The notes: generated by a model from the sequence alone, not told the origin. A stretch of DNA of 63,456 nucleotides, filler included, from Reclinomonas americana ATCC 50394 (GCA_048213135.1; 14 parts of 14 records of this genome joined end to end with filler, not necessarily neighbours in it), one strand, 5' to 3'. Shown: positions 674 through 60,580, counted from the first letter of the whole stretch. A program made the numbers and translations.

Positions 674-1637
674 ATGGCGTCGTCGTCGTCTTCGGGTGCC
701 TCGGGGTCGTCTGGACTGCAACTGGTCTCGTCCAGTGAGCAGAGCTTGGACGCGCAGGAGAATGCCTTGTTTGCGGAGATCAAAGCCGCACGAGCGCGGA
801 GAGAGTTGCGCACATGAGAGGACTTGCATGGAGAGCAAGCGTGCCTGATTGTGTGTGTGTGTGTAGGTTGCAGCCTGCGGCGGAGGTTGTTGACAAGTCG
901 CGGAGTGGGTTTGAGGTGGCCGAGGACACCACGTTGGATAGTGATCTGTATGAGGTGTGGCCGCGCGTGTTTCTCAGTGCGATTGGTGGTGCGGAGAATA
1001 GGGCGGCGTTGACGGAGAAGCACATTACGCATGGTGTGTGTGTCTGGTGGCAGATGCAGCAGCAGAGATCGCGATGTTCATGTGAGTGCGTGTACAGTGT
1101 TGGGTGTGGGGAATGGCATGGAGCGGGTGTTTCCGGAGGGCATCACCGGCGAGTTTGTTGGTTCGTTGTTGTCTGCTGCGCGGTTTGGTTTCTGTTTCCT
1201 CATCTTCTTTGTCGGCAGATCTGATCGATGCCAACTCATCGGCGGTCGATCTGCGACAGTTGCTGCCGCGTGCGGTGGCGTTCATGGTGCTGGCGCTGCG
1301 ATCGTCACCCGAGGCGAATGTGCTGGGTGAGTTTACGAGTGAGCGGACTCGAGCTCTGTATGCATTGCTGACGAGTGTGCTATACTACAGTGTACTCGTG
1401 GACCGGATGCAGTCGATCGGTGGCTGTCGTGTGTGCGTATCTCATCTGCGAGCAGGGCATGCCGTTTGCCGAGGCGCTGGATCACATTCGGAGTCTGCGA
1501 CCTGGTGCCGAGGTGAGACTGGCCACGCGATTCAAGTTACACACACCCACCGGCATTCATTGACTCCCTCCCTCCATCTGCAGCCCAACTTTGGCTTCTC
1601 GCGGGTGCTCGAAAACCTCAAGCCCGGCGAACTATGA
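674..1637 (+). CDS. Dual-specificity phosphatase-fold protein, predicted catalytically inactive (pseudophosphatase)
   Basis: Spliced product has EVWPRVFLSAIGGAENRAALTEKHITHVLGV, NVLVYSWTGCSRSVAVVCAYLI, EALDHIRSLRP and PNFGF, which are DUSP motifs; the HC of the HCX5R signature is replaced by YS. Confidence 0.85.
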
Positions 1638-1654
1638 TGACAAAAATGAACGTC

Positions 1655-56102: not shown

Positions 56103-59100
56103 CAGGTACTCTTCGAGGCTCTTTTGCACAGCATCGAGGGTGCGATTGGCGTTCTGGAACATCTCGAGCACACCCGGCGCCGTGCACAATTGCAGCACGT
56201 TCGGGTTGTTGTGTGCCTTGCGCAGTTGCTCTGCACAGAAGGTGTCAGGAAGTAGAACGAGGGGGGGGGGGGTGTAGGCGCAGTGTTTGAGACAAACGCA
56301 CCCTTCCACTGCTTGTCGACCTCCTGGAACAAGGTGGACTCCTTCGGCAACTGCTTCTGGATATCCTCGGACGAGAAGATGAACTCCAGGTACATCCAGT
56401 TGCGCTGGCATGTGGTCCACTCGTCCAGCACCTCGCTCACCACAGAGAGGCGAGTGTCCCACAGCTCAATGTCCTTCTTGATTCCACCCACATAGCGGTG
56501 ACCCATCATGGCCGACAGCTCAATCTGGTTCTCCTCAAGCTGCGTGGTGACCTCCTCCACACCGCCAATGATAAAGACGTCGCGCTGTTCGCGGTGGTTC
56601 TTGACCTCGAAGCACAGCTCATCCCAGGTGCTGACAATGCCCTGCAGCTTGGTCTCCAGCGATGACTCGCCTTGCGCCTTGGCCGCCTCCTGCTCCACAA
56701 TCTCGCGATCTGCAGTCGCCACCCAGTGAGTTTAACAAAAGAAGAGCTCGTCTCTCTCTCTTGCATGGGAATGGGAGACGCAACGATCGCAAATGTTGGA
56801 GGACAGCAGGGTGCCGACCGTGTAATCGCGGTCCTTGAAGTAATGCTTGTCCATGGCCTGGAAAATCGCACGCCAGTGGCGCTCCTTGAGAGTCGTGCCG
56901 GCCACAGCGGCAATCACCGGCACCTTCTCCATCCAGTCGCGGACCTCGGCCTTGAGCATCTCCGCGACTTCGTCGGGTCCACTGCCTGTCGCAGCACCGC
57001 GCTTGGCCAGACGGAATGAAGCGACCGAGAGGCCCTGGCCAGAGTCTTGCAACTCCTGGCCGTCAAGTGCGGTGATCTCCGTGGTCTCCCACTCCTCGCG
57101 ACGCTGACGGAAGTTGGCCAGCGTCTCCCACAGCTCCTGCTCGTACTTGAACTGCGCGTCGGCGGCCGCCAAGTTCTCCCACTCTTGACCACGAAGCTGC
57201 GCAACAAGGAAGAGAAAAAGGTTGAGCAAGAAGACAAACAAACAAATGGGTACACGCAATCAAGAGACGCAACTCCAAAGAGTTGAAGGTAATGCGAGTA
57301 GGTGACCGTCTTCTCGCGGTAGGCGTTGAGGTTCTCCTTGACATTGGTGAGCACCTCGAGCACGCTCTCGGGGTCGGACTCGGGGTCCTTGAACATTCCC
57401 GAGCGCAGCGAGAGCATCAGCTTGAGGATGGAGGCCTCCAGATCGCGAATGGCCAGCTCCAGCTTCTCGCTCATGCTCTGGCGCAATCCGTCGGCGTAGT
57501 CCTCAGCCTGCGAGAACATCTTCTGGAAACGCTCTCCGAGCTCCGTCAAGTTCTGGAAGCGTACGTGGTCCTCCATGCCAATGTCGACCTTGTGCTGATC
57601 AATGAGCACGCTCATGGCCGTGACCTCCTCCACCATGTGGGTGCGGTCTTGGTAGCGCGCACGAATGGCGTTGAGGTTCTCAACAAACATGGCGAAGCGG
57701 TCGAGCTGGTCGGGAGTGGACTCCAGTTGCTGTGACACACAAACACACACACACACAATCAGAACCAAAGAGGGACGAATACACAACATCGGGGTTGGAA
57801 AATGGCAGCGCTCACCTGCAAGTCATCCTCCAGAGCACCGACTGCCTCGATACACGCGTGGCGGAAGGTGTTCTGCAGCAGAACCTTGGTGCGTGCCAAA
57901 ATACGCTCCGTCTCGTCCTTCAAATCCGTCTGCATGGCCTTGTGGTCGACAGTGATGACCCCGAGGCGGTCGACGGCGCGCATGCTGCGGGGAGATAGCA
58001 AAACATCAGTCAGCAACACCGCGCACGATGCGACCTACTACTTGACTTGTCACGCACCCCTTGATCTCCTTCTCGTTCTTGTTGATGCGCTTAAAGTCCT
58101 TCTCCAGCTGGTACGCCGACAGCGTCTCGGTGTTGTAGGCGTTCTCGTTCCACGAATGCACGTACTCGTACACGGGCAGGAATCCGGCGTACTCGGCAAT
58201 GGCCGCCGAAGTGACCTTGTCAAAGTCGCGATGGACGATGCGCGACGAGAGTGTGCTGACGCTCTGGAACACTGGTGTCGAACGCACCGAGTCGCCAATG
58301 GGAATGGCGTGGACGGTGGTGGCAGTGGCACCGCGGCGGTCCTCGCGGAAGTACTCGGCCAGGTGCTGGTTGAAAATCACACGCGGCACGTGGTTGACCA
58401 GCGCAATGATGTGCTCCAGGGTGTTGCCGACGGTCTCCTTGATCTCGGACTCGACAGGCGAGAAGAGGATCTTGCCGTCGCGGAACGAAATGATGATCTG
58501 GAAGACCAGTGGTCTCGGCTCACGCGGCCACGACAGCGTGCTGAGGAAGCGTGCCGAGATCTCGCACGTCGACGAGATCAGTTGCTCGGCGACCACGAAA
58601 TCGGCCAGGCGGACGACTGCACAGTAGCGAGTATGAGAAAGGGAGGAAAAGGGAACAAGAGAGAGGGGGGAGTGCGACGCACAATCTTTCAGCATGCCCT
58701 CCTCGGCCTGTGCACGACGCAAGGCCTTTTGACGCTCCTTCAGCTCCTGCGCCTGCTCCGTCATGGACTTGATACGGCGGCCCTTCTTCTCGGGTTGCGC
58801 GGTGAGCTGTTGATGGAAGTTTAGAGAGGCCACTTCTTTTTGGGGGCGAGTGGGTGAGAGTAAATGAGGAGGCACGCAACGACACCGCCAGCAGCCAGTG
58901 CTTCCCAGTTCTCGGCCGAGGCCGCGTCGGGGGCATTGGCGCGCGCCTTGACTTGCTCGCACAGCTTGACCAGCATGTCCTGTGTGGTGGTGACAGAATG
59001 GCATCAGCAAACCACACTCACACACGGCGGGGCGGGGAGAAAGGACACTACGCAACGTCGATTTCGACAATCGTGTCCTCGAGCACTTTCTGGGCGTTTT

Positions 59101-60580
59101 GCCGCTGGTCCGCCTGCTTGCTGGAGAATTTGCTCAGCGAGTCGGGATCGCGTTGCGGTGTGAGATCCATCAGCATGGTGGTGCGCAGCCGTGACGCCGC
59201 GGCGGCCTGCAGATCACACAAGGTGTCGGCAAAGGCCGGCTTGGCCAAGAAGAGGCGATTGGTGAGGCGTTGGCGCGTCTTGCAGAAGCGACGGAAGCGC
59301 ACATCTGGAGTGTGTGGTGGGTGAGTAGGAGACGAGCGTGGCACGAGCAACAACAACGGGGGAGACGCAACTCTTGCGCCACTCGCGGAACGCCTTGGTG
59401 ATGAGGAAGTTGCGGTAGAAGCGAATGCGCGTCAGCACGTTGAAGAGTGTGGACTCACGCATCCACTGCGAGAGTGAAATGAACTCGGACGGCGAGCCGG
59501 GCGTCACATGCACCACGCCCTCTGCGGACATCGTGTAGTGCTCGGGTTCGGCATCCTCGCGCCGCACCACCACCAGGTCGTACGGGCGGAACTCCAGGTC
59601 CCACTTGTGGAATTTCGGGTTCAGGTGCACGAACTTGATGGGGCCTGCGAGGTGGGGAAAGATGAGCGGCGCAGGGGAAGGGGCAAGAAGGAAGGAAGAG
59701 GGCGCAACTGTTGCGGCCGTAGCGTGAAAAGAATGCCACAGCCTCCTCGCCGGTGCGCAACAGACGGCTTTCCTCGTCGTCGGCACCGGCCTGCTCCGAC
59801 AGCAACATGGTGGCCAGCAACTGCTCATGCGACGCCGCCGTGCCATCCGCACTGTCAATCTGCGGCGGCACGCCCAGCGCGGCCGCAGCTTGCGAGGCGC
59901 GGTGCAAGCCACCAGCGCCACCACCACCACTGCCGCCCGTCGACAACAGCGCTGCCGCACGACTCGGGTCCACGCGCAACGCTTGCGCCAGCAGCGTGGT
60001 CCTCATTGATCCCTGCGCCGATGCCATGGCCTCCATGGCCGCCTGCGCACCGCCGCCACCGCCACCAGTGCCGCCTTCTGAGGAGTCGGCGGGGAACGGT
60101 CCACCGCCTGCACCTGTCCCACCTCCCGCTCCCTTGCGTCGTCGACCTGCTCGTGGAAGAAAGAGGTCAGAGAGTGGGGACAGAAGGGGAAGTGTGTGTG
60201 GTGTTGAAGTGTGTAAAGTACCGATAGTGGTCGGCTGCATGGCGACTGGCTTGGGCGGTCGACCAAAGGTGAGTCGTTGACGCACTTGCGGCGTGTCGTA
60301 GTCATACACGTCTTCTTGTGGAGTGAACTCAAACACCGTCTGGAGAGTGAACAAAAACGGTCGTGTGAGTGAGTGAGTGAGAGACACACACAAGACGGGA
60401 GAAAGAGAGAAGTGAGCGCGCGCAACTCCTTCGCGAAGCCGCTGCTCGACCTCCTCTGGTGCGAGGTGCACCGTCGGCTTGGCCGTCGAGTGAAGGACTG
60501 GTTTCTCTGCGCGCGCACACACATTGTGAGTAAACACACACACACGCGAAGAGGCAACACGCCTCTCTCTCACCTGCCAT
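56103..60580 (-). CDS. Axonemal dynein heavy chain (single-headed inner-arm type), N-terminal tail and linker (DHC_N2) only
   Basis: FRPYDLVVV..EHYTMSAEGV, EFISLSQWMRES, WRKNVR, LKERHW, QRNWMYLEFIFSSEDIQKQLPKES..F..VDK.WK, LDAVQKSLEEYL. Probable ATG at 60580. Confidence 0.93.

Follow-up and report, generated by a model that had tools for sequence, protein, structure and literature searches.

The window analysed here, i.e., the whole stretch of 63,456 bases from Reclinomonas americana ATCC 50394 (GCA_048213135.1), is made up of 14 short contigs of 1.4-7.5 kb each, with 13 identical spacers (44 N, TTAATTAATTAA, 44 N) between them. Its DNA, that of a flagellated eukaryote, is intron-rich, with a G+C content of about 56%, and a Pfam run on stop-to-stop open reading frames (ORFs) placed in it a DPP8/9-like peptidase, an RCL1/RNA cyclase-like gene, WD40 proteins, the N-terminal part of a dynein heavy chain and a long repeat protein (Table 1). 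The subject of this report is a class of 5' splice sites (donors) in this window that begin with the hexamer GTTGCG and that follow an exon base other than G. An original prediction, made from the sequence alone, had listed 18 sites of this kind and placed them in one stretch, 805..60426; since the window consists of 14 unrelated contigs, that interval is not a single locus.

Abundance of GTTGCG donors and the exon base before them

GTTGCG occurs 90 times on the two strands of the window, against 54.6±7.7 in dinucleotide-preserving shuffles (maximum 78; 0/100 reach 90), and with respect to the predicted genes it lies 56 times in the sense and 21 times in the antisense direction, with 13 copies outside genes (binomial p=8e-5). 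Introns were catalogued with a home-made dynamic-programming gene-structure parser that combines codon log-odds with GT/GC...AG introns on both strands. In its round 1 donors were scored as GT or GC only, with no motif model, and 99 introns were obtained, 44 of them 45-130 nucleotides (nt) long; GTTGCG begins 9 of these 44, hence its enrichment is not a product of the learned donor model. Later rounds learn donor hexamers, and the parser iterated with learned signals over-calls (185 introns); the 33 GTTGCG donors that it called approximately match the motif excess of about 35. A filter that keeps introns of 45-200 nt, with both flanking exons of at least 36 nt and positive coding score, and needed for the frame, leaves 75 introns. 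The same procedure applied to reversed, non-complemented contigs gave 84 introns and 6 after the filter, with donors at 0 of 50 GTTGCG copies, which corresponds to about 8% noise in the filtered set and about half noise in the unfiltered set.

Of the donor hexamers in the filtered set, GTTGCG leads with 23/75, followed by GTGCGT (9), GTGTGT (5), GTGAGT (4), GTGAGC (3) and GTTTGC (3). All 23 of these introns end in AG, with C at -3 in 19, and each has to be taken out for the frame to be kept. They are mostly 64-85 nt long, T/C-rich and end in CAG, and they are like the other introns in length range, base composition and CAG acceptor; the GTTGCG intron of RCL1, with its 791 nt, indicates that the class is not limited to short introns. 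Together with junctions pinned by homologous proteins at 10 of 12 sites (see below), these counts bear out the description of GTTGCG as an abundant class of genuine GT-AG intron starts. As to the individual sites of the original prediction, GTTGCG was found at 17 of the 18 and GTTACG at 48092, preceded by A (13) or C (5). That all 18 begin frame-restoring introns holds for 13 of them, which are in the filtered set or pinned by homologues (7510, 42938 and 46315 on the plus strand; 1935, 2068, 24649, 30542, 34825, 56784, 57273, 59056, 59371 and 59708 on the minus strand); 60426 fails the filter, and 805, 18852, 23397 and 48092 were not called by the parser and are frame-consistent by hand reading alone. 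Pfam searches with the short exons beside 805 and 18852 gave nothing useful. The filter adds 11 GTTGCG sites to the earlier list (5150, 5003, 4469, 14772, 29223, 36168, 33128 and 58880 on the minus strand; 17186, 47129 and 47583 on the plus strand).

The exon base before the donor differs markedly between GTTGCG and the remaining donors. It is A in 13, C in 7, T in 3 and G in none of the 23 filtered GTTGCG donors, compared to G in 30, T in 13, A in 5 and C in 4 of the 52 other filtered donors. The deficit of G has a Fisher p=3.8e-7 (p=1.9e-6 with paralogs collapsed, 0/20), and the excess of A (13/23 versus 5/52) a p=3e-5; G is absent before all 33 predicted GTTGCG donors and present before 8 of the 57 non-donor copies of the motif (p=0.025). 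From the earlier rule that the exon ends in A or C and never in G, the exclusion of G stands within the window and the restriction to A or C does not (T in 3/23); independence from the -1 base had been named as a finding that would speak against the class, and the dependence found is strong. The 52 other donors carry G at +5 in 36 cases and at +3 and at -1 in 30 cases each, in agreement with the claim that ordinary donors mostly have the +5G that GTTGCG lacks. Ordinary donors with a non-G base at -1 tend to have the full GTGCGT or GTGAGT hexamer. This is compensation of the usual kind and points to a normal reading of exon G-1 in ordinary donors.

Part of the GTTGCG introns are related by duplication. 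On contigs 7-8 (28329-38015, minus strand) a tandem-repeat protein has an intron at one shared place in six repeat units (30542, 34825, 29223, 28721, 36168 and 32871), after C-[YIV] and within a Q or K codon, in all six with a GTTGCG donor. These introns were evidently duplicated along with their repeats, so that the independent GTTGCG cases are somewhat fewer. The repeat exon of 1192 residues is of another repeat type, so paralog offset scans against it carried no information. The hand-read junction at 23397 appears to retain the Y-x-[FVL]-C-[YVI]-[QK] spacing of the paralogous repeats; at 23392-23397 (minus strand) the GTTGCG that starts GTTGCGTGAGT overlaps a perfect GTGAGT five bases in, and either GT is possible.

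Placement of the cut and a related contig

The placement of the cut was examined at the 12 GTTGCG sites testable with homologues (RCL1, DPP8/9-like and dynein) by keeping the acceptor fixed and shifting the donor between -15 and +15, three bases at a time and regardless of the dinucleotide; offsets that are not a multiple of three are ruled out by the frame. Scores came from semi-global alignment of every junction peptide with homologous proteins, namely 14 dynein fragments, the best-aligning 30 of 120 RCL1 proteins listed and, for DPP, the best 15 per site from proteins of >400 residues among 150 listed. Offset 0 had the highest mean score at 10 of the 12 sites, the exceptions (5150 and 58880) both lying in variable regions. 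It was best at RCL1 42938, at DPP 2068 and 1935 and at dynein 59371; RCL1, DPP and dynein are the genes whose conserved peptides had been said to pin several of the listed sites.

Frame logic alone is insufficient to fix the cut, because a 3-base shift keeps the frame, and at 24649 and 23397 there are further GTs, in frame or strong, no more than 6 nt away; the true cut could then be elsewhere (at the GC three bases in or at another nearby GT), GTTGCG being merely near the intron start. The alignments make this very improbable. In addition to the maximum at offset 0 in 10/12 sites, the GC at +3 scores below offset 0 at 10 of the 11 readable sites (above it at 58880, with one homologue), a GC-AG cut giving a poorer fit of the junction peptide with its extra codon; splicing at this GC had also been named in advance as an outcome against the class. 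At the dynein junction at 59371, W-[RK]-x-N-V-R stands uninterrupted in 21 of 27 related loci of other organisms, which is the spacing given by the GT cut, and only GT restores the junction codon (N of N-V-R). A model in which the cut falls one base deeper at the 5' end and ahead of AG at the 3' end was rejected by reasoning, as it would add a codon and break the N-V-R and Y-S-I spacings. Judged by protein homology, GTTGCG sites are true intron starts at codon resolution and belong to the U2-type GT-AG class.

A scan of metagenome contigs yielded a 6,934-nt contig (L001) from a close relative, with 93% amino-acid identity in a dynein exon and 3.8 kb aligned to the window dynein contig at 76.8% nucleotide identity. 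L001 and the window share all 10 intron positions of this stretch, and the intron interiors, with 31-53% column identity, are essentially unalignable. GTTGCG is retained in L001 at 4 of 6 dynein sites (Table 1), and since it was kept while the intron interiors diverged, selection acts, on this comparative evidence, on the hexamer as a splice signal in two species at least. A motif-free donor model gives 17 introns in L001, 5 of them with GTTGCG. At 57273, a synonymous A to G change at the last exon base coincides in L001 with the shift to a +5G donor, and at 58682 one extra T in L001 changes the donor class with the exon end unmoved; the remaining three shared introns have ordinary donors in both. 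As far as these alignments reach, both donor classes serve shared intron positions, and a change of one or two bases converts one into the other. Position 1072 of L001 (orthologue of 58880) reads gcg/GTTGCGTGG, the sole G at -1 seen before a GTTGCG donor in either species.

Possible registers of recognition

It is proposed that GTTGCG represents a second, very common 5' splice site class, N/GUUGCG(U) with N other than G, of U2-type introns, which the same spliceosome would read in a +1 slid register (with a probability of about 0.5). In such a register intron G+1 would come in place of exon G-1, UGCGU would be set against intron +2 to +6 and cleavage would remain before GU; the U1 5' end of the lineage would presumably be complementary to the GCG core, the pairing being too weak otherwise. 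GTTGCGT compared with the main donor G/GTGCGT slid by one base is the same at 7 of 8 positions, and A followed by GTTGCGT equals the 8-mer AG/GTGCGT with one substitution and with the cut one base earlier. In the same sense, +7 is T in 15 of the 23 GTTGCG donors, to be compared with +6 T in 30 of the 52 ordinary donors. The normal register offers only G+1 and U+2, and the missing G-1 would weaken it further, contrary to the compensation found in ordinary donors, so that a non-canonical register is needed, and the slid one is favoured since the absence of G-1 is contrary to a bulged register and A is the commonest base at -1, as a slid register predicts. If the -1 base stands in for the consensus -2 base (A favoured, G unneeded), the GTTGCG donors fit, although the total absence of G exceeds the prediction. 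Pairing was computed with the textbook U1 5' end as printed in PMC4856993 and PMC9311317, from which the host U1 may differ. With this end the +1 register is the commonest predicted pairing (13/23 GTTGCG sites), and with a hypothetical U1 that matches the GCG core through complementary bases at its positions 5-6 it is taken at 23/23 sites, with -7.7 kcal/mol for GTTGCG and -8.1 kcal/mol for the other donors.

A number of observations weigh against the slid register. The textbook U1 end pairs with the GTTGCG class at a mean of -1.3 kcal/mol versus -5.1 kcal/mol for other donors, and 10 of the 23 sites do not take the +1 register with it. The donors GTGAG[TCA] (8) and GTGTGT (5) are common, yet their slid forms are rare (GTTGAG 1, GTTGTG 1, versus 23 for GTTGCG), and GTTTGCG donors (3 in the filtered set) would require a 2-base slide. 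The -1 profile (A 13, C 7, T 3, G 0) is unlike that of -2 in ordinary donors (G 21, A 16, T 9, C 6), and as a G at -1 would form a wobble pair in the slid register, its absence is not predicted by pairing energy, whether shifted or bulged; nor is the exclusion of G absolute in the lineage, as L001 has one G among five GTTGCG donors. Placement of the cut to the single base leans on the GT-AG rule, and in RCL1 a cut one base further on both sides leaves the same residues. Finally, the introns were catalogued by a home-made parser that learns donors in its later rounds and whose unfiltered output is 84 introns in reversed contigs versus 185 in the real ones. The earlier suggestion that this lineage uses a shifted or bulged U1 mode as a major class fares accordingly: abundance, -1 dependence and the +1 register as the commonest one speak for it, and the poor textbook pairing and the partial slid repertoire speak against it.

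The GTTGAG/GTTGTG donors at 36502 and 38601 (both minus strand) and at 583 of L001 all have a non-G base at -1. GTTTGCG donors were seen at 8301 (plus), 12950 (plus) and 28910 (minus), with T, C and T at -1 respectively, and at 4305 of L001, with G at -1; in all of them GCG is two bases off, and they may represent a third register.

Because the pairing with textbook U1 is very weak, a lineage-specific or variant U1 is a live alternative. The GTTGCG class might have a dedicated reader, either a second U1 variant complementary to (A)GUUGCGU or a U1-free recognition by U6, U5 or a protein. Variant U1 snRNAs (small nuclear RNAs) are known in human (PMC3561869, PMC10870369), and a hypothetical U1 end with one further change pairs with all 23 sites at -12.0 kcal/mol; the dominance of this single hexamer over slid forms that occur once each, and the weakness of the textbook pairing, point in the same direction. 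A reader of this kind is a serious rival but less probable than the slid register, as orthologous introns switch class by one- or two-base changes over a short evolutionary distance, which argues against two deeply separate systems, and as the two intron classes are alike in length, composition and acceptor. Tentative, too, is the wider suggestion drawn from these sequences that this poorly sampled lineage has remodelled its 5' splice-site recognition, with either a GCG-matched U1 and about a third of the introns off register, or a second U1 matched to AGUUGCGU; the ban on G at the exon end would then set the reading.

Retention of the normal pairing of G+1 and U+2, with U+3 bulged and GCGU serving as +3 to +6, as in the human G/GUUAAGU type, would account for the same sites by a bulged-U register. 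One-nucleotide bulge registers at +2/+3 are established in human (PMC4856993), the pair gatt/GTGCGT and gatt/GTTGCGT (L001) differs by exactly one T inserted after GT with the same exon end, and GTTTGCG donors could be two-base bulges. In a bulged register, however, exon G-1 would stay paired, and its frequency should equal or exceed that in ordinary donors, whereas it was seen in 0/23 versus 30/52, and at 57273 the switch in L001 to a donor of canonical register goes together with A to G at -1; this makes the bulged register improbable compared with the slid one. More improbable than any of these is an introner-type origin, in which copies of a mobile element would have brought their own GTTGCG end. 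Micromonas introner elements with family-specific donors are known (PMC3879977), and the six GTTGCG introns of the repeat protein are duplicated copies; on the other hand, comparison of the 75 interiors all-against-all under a low-complexity filter gave matches of 12-21 nt in 8 pairs, none of them between two GTTGCG introns, an inverted repeat of the motif was found in 0/75 introns, and the dynein introns are common to L001 although their interiors have diverged past alignment.

Known donor systems and further observations

Shifted base-pairing of U1 at atypical human 5' splice sites was reportedly described by Roca and Krainer in 2009. Human U1 reads such sites in a +1 shifted register (PMC4856993, PMC9311317), and a tested shifted example has A at -1 (ACA/GUCAAGUAUA, Table 2 of PMC4856993). 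The GTTGCG donors resemble these sites in that GU is followed by a match to the consensus only after a one-base slide, in the A at -1 and in the cut at GU. They differ in frequency, the human sites being described as atypical exceptions and GTTGCG beginning 23/75 filtered introns as the commonest hexamer, as well as in the core (GCG here, AAG there) and in the poor pairing with textbook U1, and they are known from sequence alone. With human bulged sites (2012; Tan et al., 2016, PMC4856993) they share an extra U between GU and the U1-pairing part, 1-2-nt bulges being possible, but those sites keep exon G-1 paired and here G-1 is found in 0/23.

The main donor of the window, G/GTGCGT, has the same atypical consensus as Mamiellophyceae donors, AG/GTGCGT in Micromonas (PMC3879977) and GTGCGTG in Ostreococcus, for which co-variation of snRNAs with the donor consensus was raised as a possibility (PMC2483917). 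Unlike the window, the excerpts of these two articles mention no GTTGCG class for Micromonas or Ostreococcus. Large intron sets with a characteristic donor are likewise a trait of the Micromonas IE-A introner elements (PMC3879977), but the intron bodies here are without sequence similarity. Among the 120 RCL1 matches listed, many of them nameless, there were no named Mamiellophyceae, and none had >50% identity, so that the host is not closely related to any named record.

U12-type introns have highly conserved extended donor and branch motifs, distinct from those of U2-type introns. GTTGCG is like them a second donor class beside the major one, and unlike them it shows single-base flips of class between orthologues in introns otherwise alike. 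A U12-type identity is not supported, as GTTGCG is unlike the U12 consensus and the two classes interconvert. No description of a GTTGCG or GUUGCG donor class was found among the literature entries listed, which dealt with primers and unrelated RNAs; this does not of itself show that the class is unpublished.

Non-canonical U1 registers are known as atypical human cases (PMC4856993, PMC9311317), i.e., rare exceptions in human genes that matter mainly for disease variants. What appears to be new here is that a donor of non-canonical-register type forms the most common class of a genome, obeys a strict rule on the exon end and is conserved across species. If true, it would be the first non-canonical U1 register, or two-U1 system, to serve as a major genome-wide splice-site class, and it would imply that evolution can alter even the register in which 5' splice sites are recognised. 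The lineage would then offer a natural system, with hundreds of conserved examples together with class switches, for how the cut is fixed under slid U1 pairing, and would bear on the co-evolution of snRNA 5' ends with the splice-site consensus, the question raised for Ostreococcus (PMC2483917). In practice, about a third of the introns of this organism would escape gene finders that had been trained on ordinary donors.

Table 1. Features of the window, with exon end and donor separated by a slash; offsets are those of the donor scan, with mean scores where given, and the last column gives the orthologous donor in L001.
Feature	Position	Strand	Exon end/donor	Length (nt)	Evidence	L001
Spacers, first six	3982-4081, 9132-9231, 12171-12270, 19773-19872, 21511-21610, 28229-28328		 	 	 	 
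Spacers, last seven	30909-31008, 38016-38115, 44360-44459, 48862-48961, 54387-54486, 55993-56092, 61457-61556		 	 	 	 
DPP IV/S9 peptidase (DPP8/9-like)	1827-5534	-	 	 	Pfam	 
RCL1/RNA cyclase-like	40250-43034	+	 	 	Pfam	 
WD40 proteins	50803-54089	-	 	 	Pfam	 
Dynein heavy chain, N-terminal part	contig 56093-61456	-	 	 	Pfam	 
Long repeat protein, PhoD_N + purple-acid-phosphatase-N + fn3-like units	24606-28226	-	 	 	Pfam	 
RCL1 intron	42938..43728	+	tc/GTTGCGT	791	gap-free; donor offset 0 best in 30/30 homologues, mean best at acceptor offset 0	 
DPP8/9-like intron	2005..2068	-	ac/GTTGCGT	64	offset 0 168.7 vs <=157.8; 0/15 favour another	 
DPP-like intron	1860..1935	-	ga/GTTGCGC	76	offset 0 151.0 vs <=138.5; 0/15 favour another	 
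DPP-like intron	4402..4469	-	aat/GTTGCGG	68	offset 0 55.9 vs <=46.7; 0/15 favour another	 
DPP-like intron	4940..5003	-	ga/GTTGCGT	64	offset 0 weakly best, 71.9 vs 69.7; +3 meets stop	 
DPP-like intron	5074..5150	-	gat/GTTGCGG	77	filtered set; offset 0 not best, variable region	 
Dynein intron	59645..59708	-	aca/GTTGCGC	64	offset 0 107.8 vs 101.1; 2/12 homologues favour +3	kept
Dynein intron, WRK-N-VR junction	59305..59371	-	aga/GTTGCGT	67	offset 0 best, 0/14 favour another	aga/GTTGTG
Dynein intron	58980..59056	-	gac/GTTGCGT	77	offset 0 best, 4 homologues	kept
Dynein intron	58807..58880	-	gtc/GTTGCGT	74	filtered set; offset 0 not best, 1 homologue, variable region	position and GTTGCGTG kept, -1 = G (gcg/GTTGCG)
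Dynein intron, ordinary donor	58617..58682	-	gatt/GTGCGT	 	 	gatt/GTTGCGT
Dynein intron	57197..57273	-	gga/GTTGCGT	77	offset 0 best, 1 homologue	ggg/GTTCGTG
Dynein intron	56710..56784	-	atc/GTTGCGT	75	filtered set; offset 0 marginally best, 41 vs 40, 1 homologue	kept
Intron	7510..7581	+	gc/GTTGCGT	72	filtered set	 
Intron	14706..14772	-	atc/GTTGCGT	67	filtered set	 
Intron	17186..17255	+	cca/GTTGCGC	70	filtered set	 
Intron after 1192-codon repeat-protein exon	24565..24649	-	aca/GTTGCGT	85	filtered set; in-frame GTGACA 6 nt upstream	 
Repeat-protein intron	30473..30542	-	cca/GTTGCGT	70	filtered set; paralogous position	 
Repeat-protein intron	29146..29223	-	cca/GTTGCGT	78	filtered set; paralogous position	 
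Repeat-protein intron	36056..36168	-	caa/GTTGCGT	113	filtered set; paralogous position	 
Repeat-protein intron	34759..34825	-	cca/GTTGCGC	67	filtered set; paralogous position	 
Repeat-protein intron	33056..33128	-	cca/GTTGCGC	73	filtered set	 
Intron	46315..46378	+	cca/GTTGCGC	64	filtered set	 
Intron	47129..47192	+	tgt/GTTGCGT	64	filtered set	 
Intron	47583..47655	+	tcc/GTTGCGT	73	filtered set	 
Candidate dynein 5' intron	60340..60426	-	gga/GTTGCGC	87	parser-predicted, outside filtered set, no homologue cover	 
Candidate intron	805..866	+	aga/GTTGCGC	62	hand-read frame	 
Candidate intron	18784..18852	-	cga/GTTGCGT	69	hand-read frame	 
Candidate intron	23323..23397	-	caa/GTTGCGTGAGT	75	not parser-chosen	 
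Candidate intron	48092..48157	+	cca/GTTACGT	66	hand-read frame	 

With regard to the genes themselves, a dynein identity of the long ORF at 24606-28226 was rejected, Pfam assigning it to a repeat protein (PhoD_N/fn3-like). The closest named homologues are distant and spread across eukaryotes, with 66% identity for one dynein exon (EukProt transcript GECH01) and 48% for RCL1, and the GECH01 accession prefix occurs in a heterolobosean paper (PMC5421314). An Rfam scan of the window gave no RNA family above threshold, U11 and U12 included. Low-complexity runs such as (GA)n and (GAC)n were seen at contig ends. RCL1, on the plus strand, has two long introns, 41126-42034 (about 0.9 kb) and the GTTGCG intron of Table 1, most introns here being of 50-110 nt; its exon order was upheld by tblastn with five RCL1 homologues.

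GTTGCG or TTGCG also stands just upstream of some acceptors (57205, 8571 and 33658, sense and intronic, and about 1125 in L001; e.g., ...GTTGCGCAG/); TTGCG is found in the last 30 nt of 3/23 GTTGCG introns versus 2/52 others, which may be chance. The commonest pentamers in the last 40 nt of the 75 filtered introns are CTCAC (21 introns) and CTCAT (16), and they may correspond to a branch-site motif.

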